A stretch of 52,685 nucleotides of DNA, counting the filler, from Jimgerdemannia flammicorona (lineage: Eukaryota), in assembly GCA_003990765.1 (NCBI GenBank). It is 2 parts of 2 records of this genome, joined end to end, with 100 filler letters (N's around TTAATTAATTAA, not from the genome) between each part and the next. Parts side by side here need not be neighbours in the genome. Positions count along the whole stretch, not along the records: positions 26,395 to 52,685 come from RBNJ01000739.1; 1 more part is not named here. One strand, written 5' to 3'. Of the stretch, positions 7,646 through 49,116 are shown piece by piece. Numbering within the stretch: position 1 is the stretch's first letter; every line of letters starts with the position of its first letter. Made by a program: the position numbers and the translations under genes. The notes beneath the pieces are model-generated. The model did no database searches, was not told the DNA's origin, and worked only from the letters and a program-made list of their open reading frames with translations.

Positions 7646-7971
7646 ATATAGTTGTGAACATAGTTCAAAATGCAGCAAAGTGGCCATTGCACTTAACACT
7701 TGTGCGTCTAACATTCATCGTGCAATATAACTACCATCTTAGATTAGTCAGTTTCAATCGCTTCCTACACCCTATCATGCACTTAAACATTCATGCAACG
7801 TAATCATACAATCCACCATCTTAGCTTAGTTAGTTTCAATTGCTTTCTGCACCCTACCTTAGCTAGCCCGAGCTCCAACCACATGCCCAAGAGTTAGGCA
7901 GTGGCCACACATTTCCCTCAACATACTCTAGCAATCATCATTAGTAATTCGTATTAATCAATTTCACGCAC
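7646..7971 (+). repeat. Ngaro repeat A1 (326 bp)
   Basis: Direct repeat of 12099-12424 (atatagttgtgaac...atttcacgcac). Contains an internal ~80 bp tandem duplication (aacattcat...ccatcttag...gtttcaat...caccct). Confidence 0.95.
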
Positions 7972-7988
7972 TATCTCTCAGATACATC

Positions 7989-9259
7989 ATACCACCTATC
8001 CATTGGTCTCAAGGCCTACTATCTGGTCCCCCAGTTCCAGCACCTGGTGCCCCACATGCACCCCCATCAATTCCCAACTTAACTGGCCTATGTACGTTGT
8101 GCAAGGACCAGCTCATCACACTCTGCCGTGAACATGACCTCTCTATAGACAGTCAAAAGGCCACCCTGGTTATATGTCTCAATGCTCATCGACCTGGCCC
8201 CGATTTCCCAGTCACTGAACCTATGGCGCTGGTTCCAACACTGTTCTCTGATGGTCATGAAGTCAACGTATTGATCAAATGGCTACTTCCAGCACTCGTG
8301 GCATGTCTCCACAGACCTTTAGCCAACACCAACCCCCCTCCAGTCCTACCACCCAGCTTACTGCCAGCACTCCCTCTTCCAGCTGCCTTCACCTCTCTAG
8401 CAGTTCCCTCGCTTTTACCACAGCCAACCCCATCAGCACCCTTATCAGCATGGTTTTCAAACCCTTTAAATGGTGAGTCATCTAACCCCCTGTTCATCTC
8501 TGATGCCATTCTACGTCATGATTGGATTCCATCAGAGCTACTGACCTCACTTGAGGCAGGGGAATACCAAATACTGGCCAAATGGACAGGCAATGCCTTG
8601 CTATCATGTCTGAGCAATCGGCAAAAACCTGATTCACATCCATCAGACCATGATCTCGACCTACCACTCTGGCTTGAAGCCATCTTCAATATTCAGGATA
8701 CATTACTGTCTCTGGGCACTACTCGGGCTGCCCCCACACTGCACATACTGCACAGCTACTTGCATTTATCATCTTTATCATCAAGGCCATCAACGACCAT
8801 TATGACTAGGCTGTCCTTCAGCGGTTTGACCGGCAAGTTCGCACACTTAAAGCATCCTTTCCGGAGCTGGATATTGGCAACCCAGATGCTGTCCGGCACA
8901 TGTTCAAAACCATCATTGGCCAGCCAGCATCAGCACCGCTTGCCTACCAACCAACATGTCAGCCCATACAGGCAATGGCCTCCTCAACAGAAAGTCCCAG
9001 AATGACCTCATCATGCCCCCTTTTATGCTTTTGGTGTGGGGTACAGGGGTACGTGTCAACCTCTTGCACCCAAACCCCTCTCATGCGACTTACATTCCCC
9101 ATCAAACCAGATGATACTCTCTCCTCAGACAGTGCAGCCAGTTCTATCTGTTGCAACTACAATGGCTCTGGCTGCCGCAGCAATTGTGGCCACCCCCATG
9201 TCTGCTTGTTTTGCTATGGCTCTCACCCAGGTATAGAGTGCTCTATTCACTGTGGCTAA
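7989..9259 (+). pseudogene. Ngaro ORF1 (gag-like): SAP-like N-terminus, zinc knuckle and Cys/His finger
   Basis: Likely start ATG mutated to ATA at 7989, in frame with 8097..9005. LCKDQLITLCREHDLSIDSQKATLVICL resembles the SAP consensus. Frameshifted C-terminus (8900..9259) has CFWCGVQGYVSTSC and CCNYNGSGCRSNCGHPHVCLFCYGSHPGIEC. Confidence 0.8.
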
Positions 9260-10866
9260 TCTCGTGACCCCACTCCCATCTGACCCCCCAGCATGTCCAT
9301 ACCACCTTGGGGAGTGGCAATGAGCACTTCACACCCATCCAGACCAACTTCTCATTCAGTACCACTTAACAGGCCTATGTCAGGGTTACCTTCACGGCAA
9401 TCACTCCCATCCTGAGCTTCGTATCGACTACATATCTGACAATCTGGCATTAGCTTACCAATATCGCAACATCCTTTCTGCCAACATTCTTGCCGAACTT
9501 CAAGCCGGTCACTACTTAGGACCCTTTTCATCTCCCTCTGCATTACCAACTGAGTTTTGTCCCTTTCACAATGCTCCCCTAGGAGTTGTCCCAAAAAAGA
9601 ACTCTACCAAACTTCACACCATTCAACACCTGTCCTTCCCAGAGGGAGCCTCTGTAAATGATGGCATCAACCCAGAAGAGTTTTCAATTCAGTACCAGTC
9701 AATCCAGTCCATCCTCCAGCTACTCCTCACACTTGGCGCCACAGCTCTATTTTGGAAGGCAGATATTGCTGAAGCCTTTTGCATGATCCCCATCCACCGG
9801 TTTGACTGGGCTATACAAGGCATCTGCTGGCTTGGCCTTTTCTTCCTTGACATGTTTCTTCCATTCGGCCTTCACTCAGCACCATTCATATTCACATCTC
9901 TGATGGATTTATTTATATGGATTTGCATTCAGCAGTATAACCTTCCCAATTTGGGCTACTTTATGGATGACTTTATCTATGTCACATCACCCTCTACTGC
10001 TCAGTCTACATACTTGTGGTTTCACTCGGTTGCTGCTCACTTTGGTCTTCCCCTCAAAGCAGCCAAGGATATACCTCCCACACCAACTATTGAGTACATG
10101 GGCTTTCTCCTCGATGCCCCCAACATGACAATCAGCCTCCCACTTGAAAAACGTACATGCATCCTCTCTCTGCTCACAGACTGGCTTGTAATACCTCATC
10201 AGACTCATCGGCCATATCCTCGGTCTTACCACGATGCTCATTCACTACTGGGTCATCTCATGCATGTTGTCCAAGTCCTTCCAGATGGGAAAGTATTCTG
10301 TGATTCCATCATTCATTTCATCTCTATATGGAAACCACCCTATGCTGGGCAGCATCATCTATCTTCTCACCTGGCCACTGATCTTCAATGGTGGCAGGAC
10401 ATCTTATGCTCATGGACAGGTTGTCACCTGCTTTTCCACTCTGATTGGCAGGATTGTGGTCTATTCACAGATGCATCTGGAACAATTGGTGCCAGCGGCC
10501 TTCTGGGCCAACACTGGTGGAGCATTCGGTGGGCCTCTTCATTCAGCAACCAGAAGGGATATGATATTTTCTAGAAGGAAATGTTCACCATCTGGGTTTT
10601 GCTTGCATTGTGGGGTTCCTCCTTTCATCATCAGCATATCATCTTATGGTGCGATAGCCAACCCTGTGTTGAATTGCTAACCAGTGGTTGGGCATGATAC
10701 CACCCTCTCATCAACGATCTTTTATGATGCATTATCCTCTTATGTCTCAACAGAGGGTTTGACATCCAAGCTCAGTATATTCCTTCCTCATCTAACCCCG
10801 CCAACTCCCTATCTTGTCTTATCCATCTCCCCTCCCATCCCTAGGAACTACTTCCTACAACTGTAA
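9240..10866 (+). pseudogene. Ngaro ORF2: reverse transcriptase and RNase H
   Basis: VVPKK, HLSFPEGASVNDGI, KADIAEAFCMIPI, LPFGLHSAPFIF, YFMDDF. RNase H motifs LFTDASG, KEMF, WCDSQ. Start approximate. Confidence 0.95.
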
Positions 10867-10869
10867 CAT

Positions 10870-11800
10870 CCCCCTTTGGCTTCGCCATCAACTCAAGTCC
10901 TGTCTCTACCAACACTCTCACACCCACACTGGTGCTCTTCGACCTGGTACCAACTCCTTCTACTGCTTCCTAGGCTACTATGGCATTGATAATACCACTG
11001 CCTTTCCTCTTCATAATGACCTCCTCAGCTATTGGGCCCTATGGCTGGCCAACGATCAAAAGCCATATACCACCATCAAGAACTATTTCTATGACATCGC
11101 TGCTCATTAACTGGCCCACTGGCGAGGCCCCCCTCTCTACCATGCATCCTTACCCCTGTTCGACATGGTATTGAAATCCATTCAGCGCCACCCACCCCCC
11201 TCACACTCACTGGAATGCCTTCCTATTACTTGCCAATACTTGCAGCTTATTCATGCTACTCTCCCCCTTACTACACCTCATGGCACCACCATATGGGCAG
11301 CCACATGTACAGCCTTTTATGGTCTCATGCGAATCGGCAAGCTGACATCTCCTGACTACCTACAATTTAACTCACACTGGTAGGCATACAGGTGCCACCT
11401 TCGACGGCACTGGGACCCTACACTTTCCCAGCCCTTTTGGTCTCTACACCTCCCTTGTACCAAAACTGGTACCTCAGGTGATATATTTCTGGGGTTTTCA
11501 GGTGCCTTCAATTGCCCCTGTTCTGCAATTGACAATATGATCCACCTCTGCCCTGCCCGTCCCAAGGACCCCATCTTCTCCTTCAGTCCCACTCAACCCC
11601 TCTCTTGCTCAACATTCATCAAGGCCATTCGGGCCCCTTTAAGAGACACTCCACTAGCCACTGGAATTCATGATCATTCCTTCTGCATCAGCGGCACTAC
11701 TCTTCTTACATCGGCAGGATATCTGGATCACATCATTCAACTGGCTGGTCAGTGAAAGTCTATGGCCTTTCTGCATTACATCCAGCAACTCGACCAGATT
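10870..11800 (+). pseudogene. Ngaro ORF3: tyrosine recombinase
   Basis: WAATCTAFYGLMRIGKL (catalytic R region), CPCSAI, HDHSFCISGTT (from GHSFRIGG.T), IQLAGQ*KSMAFLHYI (from GRW.S....Y). Confidence 0.92.
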
Positions 11801-11956
11801 CTACCTCAGATGATAGTCACCTTGGCCGCACTTCCTCTACTCAACTACCAGCGGGCCATGGGTTTGGTGGGTGGTGGCCAAAAGGTATCCACAAGCGGTC
11901 AGCGGCACCAGCATTACATTTAAGAGCCTTGCCCACTTCCCAGGCCTGTGGTTCTT

Positions 11957-12097
11957 TGGCCTCTTCACATATGAATGCGATTGGCAGGCCTTCAGAAGTG
12001 TATACTTCCTTTGAGCCAAACCCATATCCCACATTAGATTCATTTTATATAGAACACTATTTATCTCATATTAGCCTCCTCATGCGTGGGACACTTT
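11957..12097 (+). repeat. Ngaro repeat B1 (141 bp)
   Basis: Direct repeat of 12465-12605. Confidence 0.93.
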
Positions 12098-12098
12098 G

Positions 12099-12424
12099 AT
12101 ATAGTTGTGAACATAGTTCAAAATGCAGCAAAGTGGCTATTGCGCTTAACACTTATGCATCTAACATTCATTGTACAATGCAACTACCATCTTAGATTAG
12201 TCAGTTTCAATCACTTCCTGCACCCTACCATGTGCTTAAACATTCATGTAATGTAATCATGCAATCTACCATCTTAGCTTAGTCAGTTTCAATCACTTTC
12301 TGCACCCTACCTTAGCTAGCCCGAGCTCCAACTGCATGCCCAAGAGTTAGGCAGTGGCCACACATTTCCCTCAACATACTCTAGCAATCATCATTAGTAA
12401 TTCATATCAATCAATTTCACGCAC
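12099..12424 (+). repeat. Ngaro repeat A2 (326 bp)
   Basis: Copy of 7646-7971, differing mostly by transitions. Followed by a 40-bp spacer containing AATAAA (12451-12456). Confidence 0.95.
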
Positions 12425-12605: not shown

Positions 12606-13419
12606 ATATAAGTAAAATCAGCTATATTAGATTGGAAGACTATATTACCTTGAGATACCTAAGAGGTCAGATTGAAAAAGTTATCTAATATGAATTTTCA
12701 AAATAAAAAAAAATTGATATATACTAGTAACATAACATATGTGAGATTTAGATCATTATAATCTGATAATTAAAGCAGACTGATAAGAAATATGATAGAA
12801 AGCTGATATATAGCTGGACATATATCTAATTACTACTTTATTCTATATATCACTTATAGAAGTTGTTAAAGAACAATAAATAGATCAGTGAAGTCTAAGT
12901 TGATATAAAGAGACTTAATAGTTAAAAGGTAATATTAAATAGTAGTTAGTTAAAGCTAACATAAGGCCAAGCTATAGTTTTACTATATTAAAACTATTTC
13001 AGATATAGGCAGAATAATATCAGAAATATAATTATTATAATAAAGAGTATAGAATTAGAGAAAGTTGTATATATGTATTGTTCTGAAGAATATAAGTAGT
13101 ATATTATTTTTATCAGTCTGAACTATAGAAAGAAGTAATAATAGATAGAAGTATAGAATATAAATGATATCTATTACTATCAGCAATATCTGAGTATAGA
13201 GAATAAGATAATAGTAATTGGAGAGATCAGTGAGAGATAAAAAGAATATAGATAGATCCTGATGATAGAAAAACTCAAATATAGATGAAGAAGAAGAAGA
13301 AAAATCAGTGAGTAATAATATAATATAATACTAAAAGACAGAGATATAAAAATATGTTATACTGTTTTTTTATTTTCTTTTTATCATTATCTATTACTGA
13401 TATATAGTTTTATTACTAG

Positions 13420-15250
13420 TATATAATTCTCTATAAGACTTATTTTCTTAGTATATTTCTTAAACTTATATAGGTCTCAGAAGAGCTTTAGTAAGTAAAT
13501 CTGTAATTATATACTTCATAGAAATATATTTTAAGTATATAGTTCTGCTTTCTATATATTTCTTTATACATATAATAGTATTATATATTAATATATTGTA
13601 TTTTGCTATAATGAATAGAGTTCTTTGCTATAGTAATTATAGACTAATTATTCTAATAAATGAGTATAGAGTCTCTTGATCAAATCTGAGTTTCTTTAAT
13701 AGCTAGTATAGTCAAATGGCTTCTTTGACTACTATAAATAGTATATAATACTCTACTTATATAGATAATATTACTACTGAACTCTACTTATAAAACAACT
13801 TCTTTGTAATTTAATTAGAAGAAGTATCTAGTTGTAGATCAGTGATTATCTAAGTCTCTAGTCCAATTAGTATTATATATATCAGATAGTTGTATGCTCT
13901 TCTTATTATTTTTATTATTATTATTATTACTCTTACTCAATCTACTGAGAGTAAGTATATAGTACACCATCCTTTTAATATATCTAAAAATCCTCTTAAT
14001 AGAACTCTAATATAAATTATTATTACTTAATAAGTACTATATAATCTTATTTATAGTATAAAAAATGACATACCTTATTTCTAGTATAAGATATATATAT
14101 AAGAGAACTGACTGCTTATTAATAGAGAAATTAGTCTAGTTTTTATCATTATCAGCCTTGAGTATAATATCAGACTTTCTTAATTTTACCAAAGTTTCTA
14201 TAAAGATGTTTACTGACTTATATTTACTCATATTAAAATATTTGAGAATAGTGTGAGTATAAGTTAACTATAAGAGGTATACAGTATATAACCTCCTATC
14301 ATATATAATGGATATCCCTAAAAGAAAGAATGTATTACCTATATTAGTTATCTTTAATTTCTTATATAGGACTTCTTTGACTCAGTTAAGCTTGTCTTAT
14401 ATATAATGATCATAATATCATGCCCTCATATATTTATAAATGAAATTCAATTAGAATAATATTAAATATATATATATAGTTATCTGTTTTATAGTATATA
14501 AAGTCATTGTTAAGAAGATATATATTGATTTTTCTATTTCACAAATGAGCTATCTACTTAATACTATATAATTCTTTATATAATTTATATATGAGATCAT
14601 TGTTCTAACTATTATATAGTTCAAATTCTTATAGTTAGTAAATATATAGCTCTGTATCTATATTATTATTGAAAAAGACTATCTTTATATCTATCTGATG
14701 GATTTCCAGATTATATATATATATAGTACTAATTATAAGAAGTATTCTTAGTAAAATAATCTTAAATACTGGTAAAAATATCTCATCATAGTCTATATTA
14801 TAATATTGTAAATTATTCTTAGCAATAAAATAATCTTTATACCATTTTATACTTCTATAATTACTCTTATACTTAATTATATAGACTCACTATAATCTTA
14901 TAGCTTATTAATTAATTAGAAAAGATATCAGATCCTATATACTATTCTTAATAAGTGAATTAAACTCTTTATCTATGGCTTGCTTCTATATCTTATTATT
15001 AAAAGAAGTTATAGCTTTGTTATATATACTTGACTCACTAAAAGTTATAATAAATATATATCATATATCTCAGTATAGCTCATATAGTCCTTATATTAAG
15101 AGATCTTTAGTATATCTCAATAATTTTCTAAATTAGAATAAGTCTTATTCCTAAGCTTACTCTCTGACTTTTTCTTTCCTTTAATGGACTCTTCATCATC
15201 AGAAGTCTTGCTATCCTTATTCTCTATTATTCTTAGCTCAGATAACTCTG
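13420..15250 (-). pseudogene. Ty1/Copia RT-RNase H remnant, heavily mutated
   Basis: NIDYDEIFLPV (from GIDYDETFSPV, ~14770-14800), HQIDIKIVF (from HQMDVKTAF, ~14675-14700), KITNIGNTFFLLGISIIYDR, VEYYILFIVVKEAI*L (from AEY.A...AKEAIWL, ~13710-13760), DLLTKAL (~13485-13503). Boundaries approximate. Confidence 0.9.
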
Positions 15251-15254
15251 ATTT

Positions 15255-18200
15255 ATATATATAGTAGTTGAAATTAATTTTGCTATATTTGTAATATATA
15301 ACTATAATGTGGATGTTAAAGTAGAGGTCAGGATAGATAAATCTATCTAAATCTCCTCATTATATTCTTTTTTGTCAAATTATATATCTTGTAAGATTAC
15401 TATATAATATTTATATAGATTCCAGAGTTGATATGTCTTACTAGAATACTCAAGAAACATATGCTTATTTATAAGAGGCAGGGGTGCTGTGGCCTAGTTG
15501 ATAATAGTATTTCAAATATTAGCATAAATGCAATTGTAGACTTTAGTAATTATAGCTGAGTATATATATGAGAGTTGTAATTTATTGTTTTAGTTTATTA
15601 TAGTTCTCTGTTTTGACATACTATATGTTTAGTATATATACTTCTGATCTTGATTATTAAGGTTCTATTTTTATATATATTATATTTTATGACTTTTAGT
15701 TGACTCAGCTTCATGATCTGTAACTTTAGTTATACTTAGCTTTATGATCTTACATATGATTTCTGAATTTATTCTGAGGGTGAGGTGTGGATTCAGTGGC
15801 TTGAAGGTTATATACTTACAACTCTTCTCTTCTTAGTATTTAATATCCTCATTGAGTTCTTCTAATTTAGTCTAATATTATTACATCAATTAAATGGTCA
15901 AAAGTTTAGTAATATCCTTTTTTTCTCAGAAACTAATATACTTATCATTCAGTTATCTAATATATTGAATTTACATATTAAAGGTCATTTTAATGCTATA
16001 TACTAGAAGTGATTCTGATGTTATTTACTACTGGAGAATTTTCTATAAGAAATCTTCTTAAATATCTATACTTCATTTTTCCCTAGTATATAATATAAAG
16101 AGAATATGCTATCTTTCAGTTTTGCTATTTTTCTAGAGAGTTGGTATTTCTTTTATCTTAATTTACTAAGAGTGTAGCTGAGTTTTCATTTTTATTTATA
16201 ATATTTATAAAGATGCTTTTAACATTATTCAGGAGAAATAATATATATATAGTATAGTAATAATAGATATTAGAGTATTTTAACTAGTTGTTTGAAGAAT
16301 TAAATTCTTGAACTAAATCAGTAGTATTCTGGAGGTTTGTTCTGGGTTCCTATATAGCATCATAGATTGAATAGCCTTTTTATTTGATAAGGTATTCTAA
16401 GTAATTCTTGTGGTCACATTTGTTGAGAATTTGTTCAACTTCATATTTCTTATAGTCATTAACAGTAATAGGTACTGGTGGTTTTATAGTTTAATTTGGA
16501 AATAGTTTGTCATCATTTTCACTATATTATTTGAGATATTAAACATTGAAGATTAGGTGAATCTTGATGATATCTGGTAGGGCTAGTTCATAGGATATTA
16601 GAGAAACTTGCACAATAACTTCAAATGGTCTAATAAACTTATTATATAACTTTGTAGAATGTCTATGCTTGAGATTATCAACTCAGTATCCTCAGATATC
16701 TAGTAGATCTTTTTCACTGATATTAAATATTTCTTCTTAATAGTGTTAGTTGATATATTGAGATTGTTGGTTTTGAGCTTAAGATAGGTTTTCAATTGCT
16801 ATTTAGCTTAAGTTATGTATTCAGAGTAAGAATTCTTCAATAACTTCAATAGTGGAGAGTTTATCTATAATTCTTATAAGAGTTAGAGGAGTGTTTGAAT
16901 TTTGTTCTATAATGGGATCATTTTAAGAGAAGCTTGTTTGCTTTTATTATTAGCAAACTTAATTCCAGTAAGATATTTATACTAATTATCTTATCTATAG
17001 AAAACATAGTTCCTTAGTATTTGCTTTAGAGTTTGGTTAATTCTTTTAGTTTAGCCATTAGTTTTAGAGTAAAAGACTGTAGATAGTACTAGCTTTATTC
17101 TAAGATATGAGTGTAGGGCTTTTCAAAAATAGCTAGTGAATTTCAATTCTTAGTTACTAATAATAATCTTAGGAAGACTATGATAGTAGAAGATAAGAGT
17201 ATAGTAATTTCAGATACTATTATAGTTGTAGAGATAGGTACAAAGTGGGTTTATTTGTTAAGATAATCTATAAAGATAATAATTACATTCTTTCTATTCT
17301 TAGTTTAGGATAGTTGTATAGTAAAGTCTATAGAGATTTGTTCTCAATTGACAGATAATACTGGAATAGAGTGAAGTAGTCTAGGTTTTATCAGAGTTAA
17401 GGACTTATTGTATTGGCAGATATCACAAGAAGTGATATAGATCTTTAACTAGTCTGCCAGACAGGGTCAGTAGAAGTTTTGGGAGATAACTTTATAGCAT
17501 TTGTCAAAACCTAGATATCCAGCTATAGAGACATTATGATATTTAAACAGAATAGTCCTTTAGAGGTCTTTGTTATTAGGAATATATAATCTATTCTTGT
17601 AATAGATAGTATTGTCCTTCAATTGGTATTGATAATACTAAGAGTGCTTGTCAATATTATTACTACTCAGAATTTCTTGAAGTGTCTTTATTATTATTAT
17701 ATACTGTGATAATTTATTCCATAATAGAATTAATAATCAAGGTGAGAGTTTGTATAACTTTTTTAATTAGAGGTCTAGAGATTGTATCAGCAACAATATT
17801 TTCTTACTAGAGTAGTATTGAATTTTAAAGTCAAAATAGGTGAGAACTTTTATTCATCTGGCTTGCTTTTGAGAAAGAGTAGTCTGGGTCTTTATATTGA
17901 TCAATAATTTGTAGTCTATTAATATAGTGAAGTATACTTCTTTAAAATATGAATACTATTTGACCAGAGTGTCTACAATGGCTAAAATTTTCTTCTTATA
18001 GATAGTATAGTTACTTTTGATATTATTGAACTTATAAGAATGATAGACCACAGGGTGTTCTTCTTGCATAAGTACTGCTCCAAGAGCTGGATCAGAGATA
18101 TCAGTAGTAACTTTATATAATAGGGCAGAATTTACTACTTAAAGTACTAGAGTGGTTATCAGAATATCTTTTAGAGCTTAAAAGGTTATATCTTATTCAG

Positions 18201-20880
18201 GTCTCTATTTAACAAAGTTGTTGAAGTCTTTTTCTTGCTTTGTGGTCCAGGGTTGGTTTTCTTTTTTACTATACTTAGTCAATTAAGTAAGAGTATTAGT
18301 AATCTTAGCAAAGTTCATAATGAATTACTTTTAATAGTTTGCTAATTCTTGAAATAACAGAAGGTCTTTTAGCATTTTAGATCTGAGCCATTCCTTAATT
18401 ATAGATATTTTTCTGGGATCTACTTTGATTCTATTTAAAGTAATAATATATGTACTAAAGAAATTGAATTCCTTTAGAAGAAATTCACATTTGCTGAGCT
18501 TTACAAAGAGTTGGTTTTTTTTTCAGAGTTTCAGTAGTACTAGTTCAAAATGTTCAAGATATTTCTTAAGGGTTTTACTGAAGATCAGAATGTCATCAAT
18601 GTAGATAATAATAAATTTATCTGGATATGAATATAGAATAGTATTCATCAGAGTCTGAAAGATTGTGAAAGTATTAGTTAAACCAAAAGACATAACTAAG
18701 AACTCAAAATATCCATAGTGAGTTCAGAAGGCAGTTTTGTAGATATCTTCTTCTTTTATAATAATTTGTTAGTAATCATTTCATAGGTCAAAAGAGCTCA
18801 TAATTTATAGATTGATAAGCCTATTAAAGATTTCATAAATTCAGAGTAGTAGGCAATAGTTCTTGATAGTCAATTCATAGAGATCTCAGTAATCAATATA
18901 TATCTAGAGATCTCCTAATAAAGAGAACTAGTGTACTATATAGTAATATACTAGGTCTAATGAATTCTTGTTTTAGGAGTTTATCAATCTCTTTCTTGAG
19001 TATATCAATTTCTCTAGGAGACATATAGTAGATTGACTTAAAGGTTGGCTTGGTATCTAAAATAGTCTTGATTGTATAGTCAACTACTTATTGACTGATA
19101 GATCTTTGGAAAGTTTCTTTGAAAATATATCTTGAAATTTCTGAAGTAGGGGTCTGATATAACTATTAACTTTGAAAAAGTCTTTCCCAAGATTCTCAGA
19201 TTCTCCTTTGGATGAATATATGGAGTACCAAAGAGAGGATATTTCTTCACTAATTTCTTAAGTTGTAGTTTGTTGATATAAGTGATCTTTGGGCCAGAGT
19301 CACTACAGCTAAGTGGATTTCTTTTGTCTTATAGTTTGAAATTGTGGTATTCTTTCTTAATGGTCAAAGAATGATTCACTTAATCTATTATGAGGTTTTC
19401 TTATTTTAATCATAGTGTTCTAAGAATGATCTCATTGTCTGAGAGTAGTATAATTTAGAGAGTAATATATACTCAGTAGTCACTAATTCTAAAAAATAGG
19501 TTACAGACTTTCTTTCTAATAATATGTGAGGTTCAATTAGCAGTAGTAACTACTTGGGCTTATTATACTGGAGAGATCAGGACTTTAAGTCTATTGACTG
19601 TTTCTTTATTGATAAAATTGTCTAAGGTACTGCTGTCTATTATAATCTTAACAGAGGCTCAATTAATAAAAGCTTATAAGATAAGCAGTTTGTCTGATTT
19701 AATGATAGTAATTTCAATTATAAGAGGCTTCCTTCTGTTAGCTCTTCATTAGGCTAACTTATTGATATATGAGAAAAAATCATTGATTATTTAAGAAGAG
19801 TATATTCTAATACCATGAGGGTATCAGCCACTAGATACAAATCTATCTTTAATTTTTCTGTAGAATTATTCCTTCTTATTTGCAGTCAGTTGAGCTGGGG
19901 CTTTATTTGATAAGTCAAATTCTTTAAATTCTCAGATAGTAAATAGTAGTTCAGAGACTTCCTTAACTATCAGGGTCAACTCAATTTTCTTAAATAGGAT
20001 TTGAACAATATAGTAATTAATAGAGATTTTGAATAGTGTCTAACTATGATTCTTAATGAGAATAATGATTTCATCTGTATAATCTTTGTCAATAACTCCT
20101 ACTTCTACTAAGAGTTTTTTTAATACTAGACTGCTGCAATAACATATTCCTCTAACATGTTCTTCAGGAATTTGAATACTGAATTCTGTATAGACTTACT
20201 TAATTTCTCAATTAGAAATAGTAGCTTTTTCAGTTATATATAGATCATAACTAGCTGTCTTTTGGCTTCCTTTAGTAGAGGCCATAGCTGTTATCCTTAA
20301 CTTGAAAAAGTCTAGTGTTTGGTAGTCAGGTTTTTCAGGTGATATACAGTAGTGATAGTTGCTCATATTGTAGTTTGAGATTTTTGATTAGAGTAGATAT
20401 TGGCCATATATTCTCTCTTTTTGTAATAGAAGTATGCTCTACTTCTTTTGAGTTTATTTCTTTCCCCTTCTGTGAGTTTCTTGAAGATACTCAGCTAGGT
20501 AGGTTCAGAATTACAGAGTGTCCAAGAAGTAGATGTAGTAGGAGCTCTGAATGATTCATACTTAAGTTCTTCTTTCTTAATCTACAATTTTTCCTTATTA
20601 GGTCTATGAAATTGTTTTCAAGACAGAATTGGTCTAGCTATTAGAATTTGCTTGACCATAGTTTTGATTCTAATTAGGCACCTTTGTTGGTAATTATAAC
20701 CAACCAGATATTCTTATTCTTAGATCTTTCTTATGAGCCATTTTGGTAGTATATTGAATAAATAGTCTACTTTTATATTATTTTATACTTTGTTATTGGT
20801 AATATATCCTAGGCCAACAGTGTTCAGAAGGGACTCAAGTTTTGAATAGAAGGTTTCAAATTCTTCCTTATTATATATAT
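15255..20880 (-). mobile_element. Chromodomain-bearing Ty3/Gypsy element, family C copy 1 (gag-dUTPase-PR-RT-RH-INT-chromodomain, partial 3' LTR)
   Basis: RT YIDDILI (~18585-18605), RNase H and integrase motifs, chromodomain at 16305-16450, purine tract at 15821-15830, LTR start TGTAAG at 15820. Gag is interrupted at 20880 by family B. The LTR is truncated on the left near the Copia remnant. Confidence 0.92.
16305..16450 (-). pseudogene. Integrase C-terminal chromodomain
   Basis: KYEVEQILNKCDHKNYLEYLIK*KGYSIYDAI*EPRTNLQNTTDLVQEF matches the chromodomain pattern YEVE.I....YL.KWKGY....TWEP..NL. Confidence 0.9.
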
Positions 20881-22396
20881 TGTCACGTAGTGGTCACTGA
20901 GTCCTTCAAATATGCCAGATTCTCTTCAAGGTATATCTCTTAGACTAACTCAAGTTGTTATAAGCAAGTTCTTATTGGAGTGCCTTCCCAAGGTCTTATA
21001 GTCCTCAAACTTCTTATCTTTAACTATCTTGTTATCTCTTAGATTCTTGCAAGGAAGTATATGTAAGTGAAACTGGAACTGACTTTATTTTAGAGAAAAT
21101 AAGAGAGGTATTTATACAAAATATAATTCAATGATTGCTAAGATATAAAGCTAAATATAAATTCCAATAACTAAAACTACTAAGTTCCAGGGTCGGTACT
21201 GATGGTTGTACAGGTTCAGGATGCTGGTATTATTTAGTGTCACATCAAAATGCTAGTGCTAGAACAATTTCGTGTCACCTCAGAATATCAGTGCTGGCAT
21301 TATCCAGTGTAACAAAGAACTTAGAGCAGAAATTTCAGGACCATGGGGGCTTCTTCCTCATCATCTTCATCACTGAAGGAGATGAGGTCTGTGAATTCAT
21401 CATTTTCACATACTTCATTATGTGTCTTGCATATGTTGATGTCACATGGGATGATGTCATCACCAATGATGTCATCACATTCAGCTGTGGTAGGAAAATT
21501 GAGAACAAGATCTGGAGCTCTCCAGTCTATGAGGTTCTCTTCCACAAAATAGGAAACAAATGTGGGGTCTTGGGGAGGTCTAACCTGGATGCTTGGGCCT
21601 TGGAATACTGAGACCAATCCTTGTAGGAATTGGTCTGGGTTGTCCTGAAGGATCAGATACCAGAAGTCTTCTATTTCTTCACTGTTGAGAGTGATAGTGG
21701 ACTGGGCTTCTGTAGCCACCCTGGCTTCTAGTATATTGATACAGTGGGATGATAGGTCTCTGAAGTCTGAGACTCTAACATACTCCAAGTTGGGGATCAA
21801 CCATGGTGCATGCCTGAAGATCTGATGGATCTTCTTAGCTGTTCTTGTTTCGCATATATCCATGGGAGTGGCATCTTGTAGCTCTTGGGTGCTGGCCTGT
21901 GGGAACTCCCAGTAGAGGAGGTTTCCTATTTTGTACTCCTGCCACATTTAGAGGCATTCAGTAGCAATGGTGATCCTTGTTTCCATTTCACGGCAGTAGA
22001 GAATGAAGTGATAAGAGTCTGCAGTACTCAGGTTGACACTAGGAGTCCTTCTTGAGTGGGTCCTCATGGCTCTTCTGATGTCTTAGAACATCCTTTCCTT
22101 GACCGAGATACCTTGGTGATTCCTTGACCTTGAGGTTTGGCAGGCAGCAGACATTTTGTTTATGGTAAGTCTTTGAGCTATTTTGGGATTGGTGGTTCTT
22201 GTTGGTTGCTGCTACTGCAGTTCCTTGATCCTTCTTTTATATTCTTCAGGATGCTTGTGCTATGGTCACAATGACTCACAGTTGGTCATCATTGCTCATC
22301 TTGTATGCTGTATAATCTTCTTGTACTCTGATCTGGTGGCTTGCAAGGAAAGGCTGTCTCCTGTGCTGATGTTATTATTCTGGGGTCACTATTACA
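20881..22396 (-). repeat. Family B 3' LTR (~1.5 kb) containing a U3 ORF
   Basis: Minus strand begins TGTAAT right after the purine tract AGGAGGAAGA (22397-22406) and ends GTGACA at 20881. TATAAATA at 21109-21116, AATAAA at 21084-21089. Matches 49117-50583. The 5' boundary rests on the purine tract only. Confidence 0.75.
21321..22154 (-). pseudogene. Family B LTR-encoded ORF (~277 aa, unknown function, acidic C-terminus)
   Basis: One frame from MSAACQTSRS (aacaaaATG at 22154) through the 208-aa ORF 21321..21947. Its two internal TAA codons are CAA in the second copy (~50305 and ~50170). Confidence 0.8.
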
Positions 22397-26294: not shown

Positions 26295-26394
26295 NNNNNN
26301 NNNNNNNNNNNNNNNNNNNNNNNNNNNNNNNNNNNNNNTTAATTAATTAANNNNNNNNNNNNNNNNNNNNNNNNNNNNNNNNNNNNNNNNNNNN
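26295..26394. other. Assembly gap with an artificial all-frame stop linker
   Basis: N-run, TTAATTAATTAA (26339-26350), N-run. Adjacency across it is not guaranteed. Confidence 0.9.
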
Positions 26395-26430
<36 letters not shown>

Positions 26431-26431
<1 letters not shown>

Positions 26432-26443
26432 CCACTGCTACCA
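26431..26443 (-). promoter_or_regulatory. Primer-binding site (tRNA-iMet type)
   Basis: TGGTAGCAGTGGT 3 nt after the LTR end CTTACA. Complementary to a tRNA ending ...CTGCTACCA. Same sequence at 33589-33601 and a variant at ~40001-40013. Confidence 0.8.
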
Positions 26444-26446
26444 AGT

Positions 26447-28510
26447 TGTAAGAGGGTTGCTTTTTTAGAGTAACTGTTACGTAGTTCTAGAAGAGTTTCT
26501 GGAAGTTCTGGATATTCTAGAAGACTGTTTTCTTTATAGTCAAGCTCAATTTTGTATAGAGTACATCCTCTACACTTATTGATTTCAAGATCAGGTTGAT
26601 GTCTCAACCAAAGTCCTTTTTTGGACTAGTTCTGGATGTTCAGGATTTTCCGTATTTCAGGAAGTTCAAGAACCTAAGACCAGCTTAGTTGAATTGGCGT
26701 ATTGCTGTAGACAATACCTAATTAGAAAATTTCATGATGGGGTTAGGAGTGGACCTAATGGGGAGCAGATTTACTTAAGAGTGGTTTGTGGGTTATTTGA
26801 ATAGGTTTATTCACTATTCATGATATTGCTATACTAGGAGTAGTTGTGTGAGGGGATATTGTGGGGAAGTATTCAAGAATGTTCTTGTGTGTTTGAGTCT
26901 GAGATTCTGAGGTCTGGGGGAGGGGGTATTTATACTAGTGAGGGGCTATCTGGACTATATTAGATATTGGATGTAGCACTAAGTGCTTTACTGAGTTGGA
27001 ATGCAGTCATATAGTATAAGTGTGATCTGACATGTCAAGAGATCGTCTGACTGCTGAGTTAGTTCACAGTCATATTGTATAAGGCTAATCTAACTATACT
27101 ATGACTGCTAGGCTATTTATGGGTTTAGGCGCTGTCTGGGTAGTCCTTGATGACATCACCATCAATTGCATCATCTCTGATAAAGTAGTCATCTAGGAAG
27201 AGTGGTTCACAGATTACTTCTCCTTGTTCACTGAGGTAATAATACATTGAAACTTCATCACCATCCCACAGGATAGCATCATCTGTCTCATATGCTGGAT
27301 ATGGTGTTGGTGGGTGAAGGAGGGGTACATTATCTTCACTTTCATCAGATTTGCTATCTGCATACCTTCTGTAGGTTATAGCACTATGAGTCACAGGGTT
27401 GTAGTAAGCTGGTGGCTGTGGTTCATGTCACTCATATTCAGATGGTGGGGTGGTTGGTTCAATCTCAAGGGTTGTCTGAAGATACAGGTTATGTTCTCCA
27501 GTCTCTTCATTGTAGTTGAAGTAATCAGGGGTGAATGCTGGTTGGTATTCATGCTAGTGATCATTGTCCCAATAAGTCTCGTATGCTGTTATGAATTATT
27601 GTAAGTTTATCAGCAAGATTGGCGGTGTGATCAGGGTTGGCAGAGATCCTTGGCTAGAGGTCATATTGGTATCAGAGGGATCATTGTCTTCTGCTTTGTC
27701 TTCATCGAAGTGGATTATATTGTAGATGTCCTTCATGATGTATCCAACTTGGGGCATTTGTAGGATGTGATCATTGGGGTGTGGGAAGGTTCTGTCTGTA
27801 GTTTCGATGTACTCGAGGTACTTCTGGTTGAGTTCTTGTATCATGTCATTGATTTGACCATAGGACAGGGTAGTAACCATTTTGCTGGTAGTAACTCAGA
27901 GGTGGGGAATAATGGTACTGTACTCATAGAAGAGTTCTCGATGTTTGCAGGCGATGAGCTTCTGGTGTTGAGACATCTTGGTAATGTCTGTATCGTGGTA
28001 GTGTTTGACCATGTCTTTCAGGAGGCAGCCGATCTGGTAGTAGCTTGAGATTTGTCCAATTCGGTGGGCCTCGCTAAGCATGTTCAGAGTATTTCATTGG
28101 GCTTCCACAAAGTAGAGGGGTGCTAGGCTATAGATATTCATGAGGGGCAGAGGGAGTGTGACTCAGTTGACAATGGCATTCCAAATGTCAGCATGGATAT
28201 GGGTATAGATCTCGGTGGTCATGTTTGTGTGTTTAGAAGTTGTGGTTATTGTTTGTTTTGGTTCTCTGATTTGATGTGTCTCAGTGCTCAGTATATATGC
28301 ATTTGGTCCTAATTGGTAAGATTCCATTTGTGTAAATCTTGTGTTCTGTGACTTCGTATTGACTCAGCTTTGTATGCTGTAACTTTGGTTTGACTCAGCT
28401 TTGTGATCAAGCAGGTGATTTCCAGATTTGTTCAGAGGTCACGTGTGATTTCAGTGGCTTGTTCAGAGGGTAACATGTAATTTTGGTAACTTGGAGGTTG
28501 TGTGCTTATA
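26447..28510 (-). repeat. Family C 5' LTR (~2.06 kb) containing a U3 ORF
   Basis: Termini TATAAG (from TGTAAG)...CTTACA, followed by the PBS. TATAAATA at 26927-26934. Colinear with 33605-35646. Confidence 0.9.
27125..28222 (-). pseudogene. Family C LTR-encoded ORF (~365 aa, unknown function)
   Basis: ORF-track pieces 27896..28081, 27596..27880 and 27125..27394 share one frame from the ATG at 28222. The stops at 27896 (TGA) and 27596 (TAA) are CGA and CAA in the copy at 34301-35389. Confidence 0.85.
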
Positions 28511-28527: not shown

Positions 28528-28728
28528 ATGGTATATATCTGAAGATCTGATAAATCTTCTTAGCTATCCTTACTTCTTATATATTCATATGTAGAAGTGG
28601 TATCTTATAACTCTTGGAGACTAGTCTATGAGAACTCCTAGTAGAGAAGGTTTCTTATTTCATACTCCTATCATATTTGGAGATATTTGATAGCAATAGT
28701 GATCCTTGTTTTCATCTCACAGTGATAG
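28528..28728 (-). repeat. Fragment of a third family B LTR/U3 ORF
   Basis: Aligns by eye to ~21802-22000. Cut by the family C LTR starting at 28729. Confidence 0.8.
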
Positions 28729-30210
28729 TGTAAGAGAGTTGCTTTTTTGGATAACTGTTACATAGTTCTGGAAGGGTTTTCTAGAGGTTCTGGAAGACTG
28801 TTTTCTTATGGTCAAGATCAATTTCATATGGAGTATGTTCTCTATACTTATTGATTTTAAGTTCGAGTTGATGTCTCAACCAAAGTCCTTTTTTGGACTA
28901 GTTCTGGATGTTCAGGATTTTCCATATTTCAGGAAGTTTAAGAAACTAAGACCAGCTTAGTTGAATTGGTGTATCACTGCAGACAATACCCAATTAGGAA
29001 ATTTCATGATAGGGTTAGGAGTGGGACCTAATGGTAAGTAGATTTACTTAAGAGTGGTTTGTGGGTTATTAAATAGGTTTATTCGCTATTCATGATATTA
29101 CTATACTAGGAGTAGTTGTGTAAAGGGATATTGTGGGGAAGTGCTCAGGAGTTGTTATGTTCGGATTGTTGAGGTCTGAGATTCTGAGGTCCGGGAGAGG
29201 GGGTATTTATACTAGTGAGGGGCTATCTGGACTATACTAGATATGGATGTAGCACTAAGTGCTTTGCTGAGTCGGAATGCAGTCACATAGTACAAGTGTG
29301 ATCTGATACATATATCAAGAGATCGTCTGACTGCTGAGTCAGTTCACAGTCACATCGTACAAGGCTAATCTAACTATACTATGACTGCTAGGCTATTTAT
29401 AGGTTTAGACACTATCTAGATAGTCTTTGATGATATTACTATTAATGACATCATCACTGGCAAAGTCTGAGCAGTTTTCTAACTTCTGACATCATTAGTT
29501 TCAAAATGTCATTACTTCTATCTCTTGCAAGATTAAGGCTATCCTTGGTGGCAGTGGTTGTACAAGAATAACAGGTCTTGGTTCTCTTTTTTTTTGGTCT
29601 GCTGGTGCATTTGTGAGGACTGGCCATTCTTGTCTAGGGCAAGGACTCCCAATGTTATGGCTTTGGGTTTGAACCTCTCGGAAATGATATTTTCTATAAT
29701 CCGAGGCAATTTCTAGTAGTAATATCTGTCACATGGATGGCTTGAGATTGGTTTCAATGATGTCAGCTTTCTTGAGTTCAGATGAAGTGTCTGTCACTCT
29801 CCAATGGAGGTGATACAGATAGAGCAAATGGAGTTGTTCAAATGTGTTTTGCTTCTGCTAAGTAATGAGATCTTGTATAGTTACAGTGTATCTTAGTCTT
29901 GAGTTGATAAGTATAGTTCATGAACCTTTTGGTAAATGGGATAGGGTTCTTCTTGTCTCAATTTGAGTTTGGTACTTTCAGTTTCCTTTTGTAATAGTAT
30001 AGTACACCAAACTAGTTATAGCAGTTCAGAGTCAGTCTTATGGTTGTAGTACTTCTTCTAGTATTCTTGTATCTTGGTGGTGGGTTCTCATGCTTGCTGG
30101 CATATTTCGTGTAACCAGATGATCTCTTGTTTTGTAGTCTCACATGTGGTTTCCAAATTAGTTCTGAGGATACCATATAATTTTAGTGGCTTGGAGGTTG
30201 TGTGCTTACA
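28729..30210 (-). repeat. Family C 3' LTR variant (~1.48 kb) with an alternative U3 cargo
   Basis: TGTAAG...CTTACA termini. Homologous to the other family C LTRs over 28729-29455 and ~30145-30210 only. Confidence 0.85.
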
Positions 30211-33200
30211 ACTCTCCCCTTCTTAGCTTTTGATGTCCTCATCGGGACCTTCTAATTTGTTCTGGTGTTGTTGTATCATTTGGATGATTCTTGTGGCTGT
30301 GTTTGTTGAGGATTTGTTCAACTTTGTATTCTTCTTGGTTATTAATAATGACAGATACAGGTGGTTCTGTGGTTCAGTTCAGAAATGTGTCTTGGGCTTT
30401 CTGGAGTAGTGGTCTGACATGGCTGTCAACTTTTGAAAAATCTTCTTCAGAGTTCTCGAGTTCTCCTTTGGATGGACGGATGGAGATGGCAAAGAGAGGA
30501 CATTTCTTGGCCAATTTCTTAAGTTGTAGCTTGTTGATGTGAGTGATCTTTGGTCCAGGGTCACTAGAATTAAGTAGGTCCTTTTCACCTTACAGTTTGA
30601 AGTTGTGGTGTCCTTTCTTGATGGTCAGAGAATAGTTTACCTAATCAATCATGAGGTTCTCTTGTTTCAGCCATGGGGTTCCAAGGATGATTTCATTATC
30701 AGGGAGTGGTACAATCTGGAGGGTAATATATACTTGGTAGTCACCAATTTGGAAGGGTAGATTGTAGACTTCTTTGCTAATAACATGTGAGGTTCCATCG
30801 GCTGTAGCAACTGCTTGAGTTTGCTGTATTGGAGAGATGAAGACCTTGAGTCTATTGGCTGTCTCTTCATTGATGAAGTTGCCTAAGGTACTACTGTCTA
30901 TCATAATCTTGACAGGTACTTGGTTGACAAAAGCCTTAAGTGTAAGTAGTTTGTCTGATCTGATAGTGGTGATTTCAGTTGTAGGACTTTTCTTTCTATT
31001 GATTCTTCTTTGAGCCAGTTTATTGATATAAGAGAAGTAATCATCAATCATTTGGAAAGAGTACATTCCAATACCATGAGGGCATCGGCCACTTGGTACA
31101 TATCTGTCTTCAATCTTCTTGTAGAATTGTTCTTCTTTGCTCATAGTAGGTTAGGCTGGGGCCTTGTTCGATGAGCCAAATCCTTTGGATCCTCAGATGG
31201 TGGGCAGTAGTTCAGGGACTTCCTTGACTGTCAGGGTTGACTCGATTTTTTTGAATAGGATCTGGGCAATGCAGAAACCTATGGAAATCTTGAAGGGTAT
31301 CCAACTATGGTTTCAGATGAGGACAATAATTTTGCCTATGTAATCTTCATCAATGACTCCTCCTTCTACTGAGAGTCCTTTTAATGCTAAGCTGCTGCAA
31401 CAGCATATTCTTCCAACATGTTCTTCAGGGATTCAGATACTGATTCCTGTGTAGACTTGCTTGACTTCTCAGTTGGAAACTGTAGCTTCTTCGGCTGCAT
31501 ACAGGTCATATCCAGCTGCTTTTTGACTTCCTTTGGTTGGGGCCTTGGCAGTTTGTCTTAACTTGACAAAGTCTAATATTCTGGTGGTCAGGTTGTTGAG
31601 GTGGTACAGAGTGGTAACAGTTGCTCATGTTGCTGTTCAAGGTTTTCAGTTAGGGCAGACACTGGCCATGTGTCCTGTCTTTTGGCAATAGAAGTATGCT
31701 CCACTTCTTTGAAGTTCATTCCTTTCTCCTTTAGTGAGTTTCTTGAAGATACTCAGCTGGATAGGTTCATGATTTCTTTGGTGTCTATGAGGTGGATGTG
31801 GAGGGAGCTTTAGATGCTTTATGCTTGGGTTCTTCTTTCTTGGTCCAAGTCTTTTCCTTATTGTTAAATTATCTTTGGTGCAGAATTGGTCTAGCTGTTA
31901 GGATTCACTTGACCATAGTCTTAATTCTTGCTAGGCACCATTGTTGGTGATCACAACCAACTAGGTGGCCTTGTTCTTGGATTTTTCAAGTAAGCCATTC
32001 AGGTAGTATATTGAATAAATGGTCTGCTCTTGTACTATTTCGTGCTTCATCATTGGTAATATATCCTAGGCCAACAGTGTTCAGGAGTGACTCAAGTTTT
32101 ATACAGAAGGTTTCAAATTCTTTTTCGTCATATACATCAAATTTGAGGTTGCAGAGTTTTACTTGAGATTCAGCAATCATGGTTTTGCTATGGTATTGAG
32201 CAATCATGAGTTGTTTGAGTCCAGGGGCTGCAGGATGGGCTCTGTATCCTGGGGCATTGTTTGCTGTATTCTGAGCAACTACTGCAGGTCAGGTATCCTA
32301 TGTGAGGGGTTTTTCAGGAAGGGTTCACCACCATTCTTTGACAGGTCCTTAGAAGAATGTAACAACTTGGTGGACATAGGCTGTAGTGGTAGCAAAGAGT
32401 TGTTCCAGAGTGTGGTCTTGATTATTTGTCAGAATATAGTTAGCAACTCACTCATTGGTCCATTGATTGGCTTCAAAGTTAGTGTCAACTACACTAATGA
32501 AACTTTGGACTTTCTGTGCAGTACTATTGAAGATAGGTAGGCCCAGATTTTTGGTAGGTCAGGTCTGTTCAGCTAATGTAGTAATGGTTGCTGCCATTAT
32601 GGCTACCTGGGCTGTGAGGTCTAGAATCTGTTGGTTTGCCATATTGTTTGCTAGAGACAGTTGAACTACTGGTAGTGGTGTTACTGGTACTACTTGAGGT
32701 ACTGGTGCAGAGTGTGAGGGTGTTCTTTGAGTCTGTATAAGTTGCTGAAGTAGTAGTTGTGAGTCTGGAGTGAGGGCTTGATAGATAACTATTTGTTGCT
32801 GTGTAGGTGTATTCTGTTCTGATGAAGGTACTTCTCCTTCACTGGTGTATCTAGGATCAAATTCACTGAGATACTCCTCCTTCTGTTCGGTTTGGTCCCT
32901 ATGTAATTGGGTTTGCTTGATATTGAAGTAGACAGAATCAGTTGTATATCTGATTTCAGATGGACTTAATTCAAAGTCAAGTTCAGGTTCAGTATTGGTT
33001 TCAGATTCAGGTAGGACTGTAGCAGGGCCTGCTTCAGGTTCGGGGTCAGGTAATTGATGAAGAGTTTCTCTTACTTCTTCTTTAAGAATATGGTGGGCCT
33101 TGCTGTTCTGGAATTGGTAGTATAGTGCAGTCTTGGTCCTGGTATGGTGAAAGTCGGTAGAGTTGAGCCACTTAGCTATGGAGGCTTGGGCTTTGTAAGG

Positions 33201-33604
33201 AACTAAGGCTAGAAAGACTGCTGCTGGTTATCCTAGATTGCTCAGATTTATGGAGCTGACAAAACTCTTGTTGAGAAGGGTAAAAAAGGCTTCTATAAGA
33301 CCTTCTTCATCTTGACTTGCTGGGTGTAGTGCAAGGAGTTCGGTGAATAGGGTTTCACCTATTTGCTGATTTAACTGAAGTATTTCTTTCTTCGAATGAA
33401 GTTTGTCCCACTTGTTGCAGGTGTGGAGGTCAAATTGTCCTTGTATGTCAGGTTCAATTCTCTCCAGATTGTCAGATGGTTCAGGATAAATTTCAGTTCA
33501 GAGGTTGGGCTTTATACTAACTTGTAGGAATTTGCAGAGGAGTTTGTAGTGGGGTGAGGAAGTATCTTGAAGTGAAATTGGATTATAAACCACTGCTACC
33601 AAGT

Positions 33605-49076: not shown

Positions 49077-49112
<36 letters not shown>
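49077..49112. repeat. (AT)n microsatellite
   Basis: About 18 AT units directly visible. Confidence 0.95.
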
Positions 49113-49114
<2 letters not shown>

Positions 49115-49116
49115 AC

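Follow-up and report, generated by a model that had tools for sequence, protein, structure and literature searches.

The window analysed here, a stretch of 52,685 nucleotides (nt) from Jimgerdemannia flammicorona (assembly GCA_003990765.1), is a nest of decayed retroelements. Self-comparison and end alignments revealed in it four copies (A, B, C and D) of one long terminal repeat (LTR) family, all on the minus strand. The explanation that we favour, with a probability of about 0.7, is that the 2.04-kb LTR of this chromovirus carries a real protein-coding gene of ~365 codons in its upstream part, the unique 3′ region (U3), and that the gene has decayed in the copies seen. The narrower statement, that an ancestrally coding gene lies inside the LTR, is likely and slightly the safer of the two. 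To our knowledge, LTR-internal genes are outside the accepted picture of fungal and plant LTR retrotransposons, where extra open reading frames (ORFs) are internal.

Position and openness of the LTR-resident ORF

Two copies of the LTR contain the ORF from start to stop:

28222 to 27125, minus strand: ORF of copy A, ATG at 28222, end stop codon at 27127-27125, 365 codons, six in-frame stops (codons 20, 43, 109, 209, 223 and 265)
35389 to 34301, minus strand: ORF of copy C, 362 codons plus stop, three in-frame stops (codons 85, 227 and 319)

These are the coordinates that the first-pass annotation had proposed for a ~365-codon frame and its sister copy. The frame opens 288 nt (A) or 257 nt (C) from the LTR 5′ end and closes 678-696 nt short of the other end, ~190 nt upstream of the conserved TATAAATA. 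Its strand is that of gag-pol. In D the ORF start is 268 nt downstream of the junction between the polypurine tract (PPT) and the LTR. An ORF of the internal region, flanked by LTR and gag or by pol and the 3′ LTR, was rejected by the position of the frame wholly inside the LTR. Since the ORF occurs both in 5′-LTR positions (A and C) and in a 3′-LTR position (D), reverse transcription duplicates the gene along with the LTR.

The A and C copies of the ORF use the same frame, are free of frameshifts and have their stops at different places. Frame 0 has 6 stops in A versus a mean of 18.4 in shuffled sequences, and 3 in C versus 19.6. As few stops as in A were obtained in 0.04% of 5000 shuffles (minimum 6), as few as in C in none of 5000 (minimum 5), and the remaining sense frames contain 17-41 stops. 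It had been claimed from a comparison of some of the stops that they are sense codons in the other copy; this was true for all nine, each of which is a single transition away from the sense codon of the sister copy (CGA/CAA, TGG, CAA). At seven of the nine stop positions the residue of a stop-free homologue is the same as the residue of the sister copy. The in-frame stops are secondary transitions, and the ancestral frame was probably open. Openness of this frame had been named beforehand as a test, and the frame is open once transitions are discounted. In both A and C the gene is mutationally decayed.

Limits of the LTR

The LTR copies and the signals adjoining them are the following:

28510 to 26447, minus strand: LTR copy A, 2064 nt, TATAAG...CTTACA, 5′-LTR position, followed by a primer-binding site (PBS)
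35646 to 33605, minus strand: LTR copy C, 2042 nt, TGTAAG...CTAACA, 5′ LTR of an element with an internal deletion
30210 to 28729, minus strand: LTR copy B, 1482 nt, TGTAAG...CTTACA, 3′-LTR position
15820 to 15460, minus strand: LTR fragment D, 3′-LTR position, comprising the LTR 5′ end, the motif region and ORF codons 1-31, then a break
26428 to 26446, minus strand: PBS-like ACTTGGTAGCAGTGGTTTA of LTR A, directly 3′ of the LTR
33586 to 33604, minus strand: PBS of LTR C, the same ACTTGGTAGCAGTGGTTTA
30212 to 30224, minus strand: PPT of LTR B, directly 5′ of the LTR

The LTR has TG...CA ends with short inverted termini. The first-pass annotation was right about a ~2-kb LTR adjoined by PPT or PBS, whereas the terminal pair TGTAAG/CTTACA that it gave is perfect in B only, one base being changed in A and one in C. 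Its third copy at ~15255-15820 was also real, with the smaller extent listed above for D. A purine tract, a T and TGTAAG follow each other in this order in B (AAGAAGGGGAGAG) and in D (AAGAAGAGAAGAG). The PBS-like sequence starts with TGG one to two bases past the LTR end, and it is the same in A and C at 19 of 19 nt although the whole LTRs are only ~86% identical. The DNA upstream of A is unrelated to that upstream of C, and neither resembles the PPT region.

Contigs from other sequencing runs cover stretches over the whole LTR. One of them (record 32) runs over the LTR 5′ end into different flanking DNA, with a loose end at 28461, and another (record 11, 26897-27186) spans the ORF stop and TATAAATA. 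Two DNA runs, in the form of contigs, covered 30 of 30 bins. These contigs show the LTR family to be present outside the assembly analysed here; in one soil-metagenome run 348 of 3086 contigs were at least 99% alike, and this run may itself be the source of the window.

Just inside its 5′ end copy A has a 32-nt insertion (28461-28492), apparently a local duplication, which is not present in B, C or D. The 200 nt separating LTR B and LTR A (28528-28728) are a piece of a third repeat family, found also at 20872-22361 and 49108-50583 (the pieces matching 28528-28728 are 21803-21991 and 50025-50221). LTRs A and B both abut fragments of this third repeat, and the flanks of the unit bounded by C and B are therefore not continuous. 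The C and B LTRs of this unit differ in the middle; the C-B copy has undergone rearrangement or recombination. Solo LTRs were not encountered in the window.

Indels, substitutions and homologues

In the alignment of A with C the ORF has one indel (9 nt) in 1098 columns, whereas the non-ORF part of the LTR has 11 in 990 columns, none of the 11 being a multiple of three (binomial P = 0.0018). Differences within the ORF are distributed over codon positions 1, 2 and 3 as 50, 26 and 71 (chi-square p = 3e-5). The naive Nei-Gojobori ratio of non-synonymous to synonymous substitution rates (dN/dS) was 0.24 in the ORF frame versus 0.33-1.54 in five control frames.

Transitions account for 92% of the ORF substitutions and are clustered at CpG. 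A simple reading of the pattern as repeat-induced point mutation (RIP), with 63% of the transitions at CpA, had to be revised because CpG was the hottest context once the un-mutated neighbour was inferred: the inferred sites that differ between A and C are 51 of 74 at CpG, 47 of 182 at CpA/TpG and 42 of 274 at other C/G positions. The pattern points to CpG-centred deamination and not to classic CpA-biased RIP.

Three proteins reached E ≤ 0.001 when 1.84 billion representatives were searched exhaustively with a profile. Two were true homologues; the third, a bacterial repeat protein, was a spurious match. The homologue P0004 (128 amino acids, aa) is stop-free, has the same MTTEIY start and is 83% identical. 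P0003 (247 aa), likewise stop-free, extends from residue 115 to the shared C-terminus, with 58% identity to C (BLASTP) and 66% to A (tblastn), and the gaps that separate its conserved blocks are in frame. With these homologues the ORF shares its start codon and its stop position. Two word-indexed searches returned the same two proteins, each as a single sequence, and two scans of metagenome contigs found no related DNA. The argument that the frame was coding is built on its open ancestral state, the pattern of indels and the diverged open homologues; dN/dS is not part of it.

LTR variant B

LTR B shares its first ~68 nt and last ~740 nt with A and C; its homology to C is limited to LTR nt 4-68 and nt 1302 to the end. 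Still present in it are the integrase-end sequence, ~20 codons at the ORF end, TATAAATA, the repeat region (R) and the unique 5′ region (U5). What is between has been exchanged:

29460-30142, minus strand: replacement segment in LTR B, 683 nt, unrelated, in place of the motif block and ORF codons 1 to ~345

This segment is unique in the window and has no long frame. Because the motif block and the ORF were swapped together, they behave like a single exchangeable unit of gene and putative promoter.

Motifs around the ORF and transcription

Three kinds of sequence motif accompany the ORF:

28391-28397 and 28360-28366, minus strand: two TGAGTCA sites of the bZIP/AP-1/Gcn4 type (TGACTCA on the plus strand), forming part of a ~31-nt tandem repeat
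28292-28297, minus strand: TATATA, shared by A, C and D, 70 nt ahead of the ATG
26934-26927, minus strand: TATAAATA, present in A, B and C and presumed to be the main promoter of the LTR; the putative U3/R boundary is just downstream

All were read where they had been reported at first pass (28391 and 28360, 28292-28297, and 26927, respectively). No base differs among A, C and the 70%-identical D in AAGCTGAGTCAA, the second TGAGTCA site, or in TATATATAC. In copy A the 70 nt from TATATA to the ORF start contain no ATG, and the ATG of the ORF has an A at -3. Additional ATGs, one upstream of TATATA in A and one between TATATA and the ORF in C, are transitions, the other copy having ACG. We infer that the ORF lies in U3, because TATAAATA is the promoter kept by both LTR types. 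That the gene has a promoter of its own is a tentative proposal, to which we give somewhat less than even odds.

Among the 13 listed sequencing runs sharing words with the window there was no RNA run; the best share was 0.22, and most were soil metagenomes. Two runs guessed to be RNA have high-depth contigs at 26629-26862, few low-depth contigs over the ORF and loose ends at 26870. Depth is given in these runs as one figure per contig and their RNA label is a guess, and they were not used as evidence on expression or on the transcription start.

The parent element

Internal sequences belonging to the LTR family were found in two places, and an artificial linker borders LTR A:

15821 to 20865, minus strand: interior of the D element with reverse transcriptase (RT), RNase H (RH), integrase (INT) zinc domain, SH3_Tf2-1 and Chromo, heavily transition-mutated
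30211 to 33604, minus strand: interior between C and B with gag, CCHC knuckle, dUTPase (3.1e-30), protease (PR), then a chromodomain tail and the PPT; RT-RH-INT deleted
26295 to 26394, no strand: artificial contig linker, N44 + TTAATTAATTAA + N44

In the D element the domain matches were RVT_1 (1.9e-16), RT_RNaseH (1.9e-16), Integrase_H2C2 (2.9e-11) and SH3_Tf2-1 (6.5e-10). Its Chromo domain (1.3e-6) scored 28.6 bits at a cut-off of 25.1, in agreement with the original assignment of the ORF to the inside of an LTR of a chromodomain Gypsy element. The 3′ LTR of the D element contains the start of the ORF, the order being pol with Chromo, PPT, LTR start and ORF start. In the C-B element the dUTPase is placed between gag and PR. 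The family has the terminal repeats, the placement of PBS and PPT and the gene order gag-PR-RT-RH-INT, with a chromodomain at the integrase C-terminus, of Ty3/Gypsy chromoviruses. On this domain content, the LTR family is that of a dUTPase-bearing chromovirus (Ty3/Gypsy, fungal type).

The region 13000-20900 has a GC content of 0.20-0.30, and the pol domains of the D element were detected only when stops were read through. Since the artificial linker is beside LTR A, the DNA beyond it is not the interior of A. A dUTPase-PR-RT-RH-INT segment at 26292 to 22959 was considered as this interior and rejected: it belongs to another Gypsy family, with ~38% protein identity to the C-B interior. A poly-T tract at 26395-26430 directly follows the linker.

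The predicted product and a possible mechanism

The ORF protein has an isoelectric point of 4.1-4.7, and 12-15% of its residues are Y, F or W. The highest 19-residue hydropathy value is 1.37, which means that there is no hydrophobic or membrane segment. No cysteine motif is present, and K and R together make up only 17-25 of 359 residues. The C-terminal part is strongly acidic and rich in aromatic residues and proline: seven successive 40-residue windows over residues 121-360 have net charges of -4 to -10 and contain 3-9 aromatics each. The N-terminal half was predicted by AlphaFold2 (AF2) to be helical, with low confidence. From these features we infer a cytosolic or nuclear protein whose N-terminal half is probably helical. 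Because of the few basic residues, a DNA-binding factor seems unlikely. Kinship to the gag of its own element was rejected (hhalign probability 0.4%).

The acidic, bulky-hydrophobic composition fits an activation or adaptor region; no binding domain was found. The transactivator or anti-silencing factor suggested at first pass is a possibility drawn from this composition. On the same grounds, the product might be an adaptor of benefit to the element, one that brings in host transcription or chromatin factors, for instance, or dampens silencing, a speculative assignment that we consider improbable in this specific form. In the mechanism that we propose, the gene and the ~200 nt before it (two TGAGTCA sites, TATATA and the 70 nt without ATG) would be a swappable module, a dispensable accessory cassette that could be transcribed from its own U3 promoter in any LTR. 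The transcript would be polyadenylated at the normal site of the LTR, and the product would act on host factors to the benefit of the element. Taken to its full extent, this would make the element a 'complex' chromovirus: a cassette of enhancer repeats, TATA and ORF, expressible by every LTR including solo LTRs, would encode an acidic adaptor that boosts the element's own transcription or blunts genome defence, and it would be modular, swapped among LTR subfamilies. In its entirety this picture is rather unlikely, a little less so than the adaptor role specified above.

Evidence against an LTR gene and alternative explanations

A number of observations weigh against a real gene in the LTR. The naive dN/dS of 0.24 is largely a transition artefact. 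Among inferred C/G sites in the ORF, 31% of the synonymous versus 24% of the non-synonymous ones differ (Fisher p = 0.066), and at CpA/TpG sites alone the values are 29% and 25% (p = 0.59). With so weak a contrast after control for context, most of the A-C divergence looks like neutral, deamination-type decay after insertion. The dN/dS comparison that had been recommended at first pass thus gave a low naive value and nearly neutral evolution when the context was controlled. LTR B lacks the gene, which is therefore dispensable, that is, not needed in cis.

Other points concern the copies. The complete ORF-bearing LTRs (A and C) are both in 5′ position, and the sole ORF copy in 3′ position (D) ends after codon 31. 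The window showed no element in which both LTRs bear the ORF and a target-site duplication is present. Around the C-B unit there is no target-site duplication, the flanks reading CTTAT (C) and CTATC (B). The TGACTCA motif is not enriched in the window (19 found versus 11.9 expected; 3 of 100 shuffles reach 19).

The protein, too, gave little to build on. P0003 and P0004 are its only database relatives, each from a ~1-kb contig and neither full length. AF2 gave mean confidence (pLDDT) values of 31.6 with a 4-sequence alignment and 51.3 for P0004 (N-terminal 128 aa), too low for a fold search. Pfam had no match to either ORF copy at E ≤ 1 apart from a chance match to DUF5338 (E = 0.086), and a sequence profile search of the PDB returned only SKA1 (E = 0.33), again by chance. 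In the ESM Atlas P0003 had no usable feature match, its structure rows having TM ≤ 0.30, and P0004 matched only unnamed or unrelated clusters at 0.90-0.93, which we treated as chance.

Several of these points would be expected if the frame were a passenger or relic, once coding (captured or born in the LTR) and with no role for the element, persisting by faithful copying of the LTR in copies that are young relative to a common master. The non-significant synonymous/non-synonymous contrast, the loss of the gene from LTR B and an orphan protein without a confident fold all suit such a history. Faithful copying does not easily account for P0003, however, which stays open for 247 codons at only 58-66% amino-acid identity and has its gaps in frame, nor for the single in-frame indel of the ORF versus 11 out-of-frame indels in the rest of the LTR, nor for a start codon and a stop position that homologues have in common. 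We regard this explanation as unlikely, although it is the strongest of the competitors.

Less likely still is a leader ORF, in which the upstream TATATA would be the main LTR promoter and the ORF, as opening cistron of the genomic RNA, would sit in an R of great length. TATATA, the ATG-free 70 nt of copy A and the A at -3 suit any Pol II start, and the position of the transcription start that we use rests on inference from TATAAATA, which also counts against our placement of the gene in U3. On the other hand, LTR B keeps the sequence from TATAAATA to the end and drops the upstream motif block, as expected if TATAAATA is the essential promoter. In addition, TATAAATA is conserved in A, B and C, and an R of ~1.5 kb would be unusual.

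A mis-delimited LTR or a chimeric assembly, with the ORF belonging to the interior between pol and a short LTR, might be suspected in a draft window that has an artificial N linker right after copy A and a C-B element with unlike LTRs and no clean target duplication, but it is very improbable and largely refuted: PPT and PBS abut the ends of the 2.04-kb repeat, so that the LTR is not short, the PPT touching TGTAAG in B and also in D, where the ORF start follows; A and C, 14% diverged and with unrelated upstream flanks, have the same structure from TGTAAG to PBS; and contigs of other runs cover whole-LTR stretches, the LTR 5′ end and the ORF stop with TATAAATA.

Other features of the window

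Direct repeats of 326 nt (7646-7971 and 12099-12424, 92.6% identical) surround a GC-rich, C-skewed 4.1-kb unit (7646-12424), which is probably another kind of retroelement. The first ORF of this unit (357 aa) has no Pfam match, and a weak RVT_1 match (E = 2e-5) is below the cut-off. Kinship of the LTR-resident ORF to ORF1 of this neighbouring retroelement (7932-9002) was rejected (hhalign 1%), the weak tblastn matches being due to chance. A composition like that of the 7646-12424 unit was seen also at 352-1863 and 40.8-46 kb. The segment 50899-52683 is GC-rich (0.55) and has long overlapping open frames on both strands; one frame of 595 aa runs past the window end, and Pfam gave no match for the segment.

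Implications of a probable gene in U3

A gene in U3 is duplicated in each element and is not lost when LTR-LTR recombination leaves a solo LTR. Through a high-copy family, a genome could in this way acquire hundreds of units from which one and the same protein might be expressed. If the gene is expressed, genome complexity of the retroviral style arose independently in a non-infectious element, and the gene would provide a handle on how such elements meet fungal genome defence. Annotation pipelines mask LTRs ahead of gene calling, and such genes would be missed.

Comparison with known systems

LTR-internal accessory genes are textbook knowledge for a few vertebrate retroviruses. In mouse mammary tumour virus (MMTV) the superantigen ORF sag is in the U3 of the LTR and can be expressed from the LTR; its product, Sag, is a type II membrane glycoprotein. 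Lentiviral nef and foamy-virus bel/bet extend into the 3′ LTR, and an internal promoter drives the accessory genes of foamy viruses. The additional ORFs (aORFs) of plant elements sit either ahead of gag, after the 5′ LTR, or behind pol, before the 3′ LTR.

If our placement of the present ORF in U3 is right, sag resembles it as a sense ORF of ~320-365 codons wholly in a long U3, duplicated in both LTRs and dispensable for replication itself. Unlike sag, the present ORF encodes a product without a membrane anchor in a fungus-type retrotransposon without env, and the two have no sequence similarity (no Pfam match). The genes nef and bel/bet resemble it as accessory genes at the 3′ end of the genome that reach into U3, with a second promoter in the foamy viruses. 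They start in the interior and only overlap U3, whereas here the ORF and its putative promoter are all in the LTR and hence also in the 5′ LTR.

The layout had appeared unfamiliar for fungal Ty3/Gypsy elements at first pass, and in the open-licensed papers and preprints searched no LTR-resident ORF was described for a fungal or plant LTR retrotransposon. The accessible text of PMC7264820, on plant aORFs, has no mention of an ORF 'in the LTR' or 'within the LTR'. As far as the available parts of the two papers go, the plant aORFs (PMC7264820) and the ORF3s of bdelloid rotifers (PMC5408684) are similar to our ORF in being lineage-specific extra ORFs, mostly without an assigned function, that are gained and lost among relatives.

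Two fungal systems were compared as well. In the Podospora element crapaud, according to the accessible portion of PMC10787394, diverged variants are confined to the 5′ half of the LTR, and in 7 of 150 full copies the 5′ LTR is unlike the 3′ LTR. A similar situation is seen here in the A/C and B types and in the C-B pair, whose LTRs are unlike; however, the diagram in that portion has two ORFs only, GAG and a pol-type ORF, and places none in the LTR. Chromoviruses with a dUTPase are represented by PosPlaTy3 of Postia placenta and have been reported also for Phanerochaete chrysosporium and Tuber melanosporum (PMC2864245, in its accessible sections). PosPlaTy3 is alike in having gag, PR, RT-RH-INT and a chromodomain plus dUTPase. 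It differs in that those sections describe no LTR-resident ORF, the legend of Figure 3 giving an 'add. ORF', one without an assigned function, and the text no position for it. By layout, the nearest counterpart of the gene described here is MMTV sag, followed by nef and by bel with the internal promoter of foamy viruses; by descent it is none of these.

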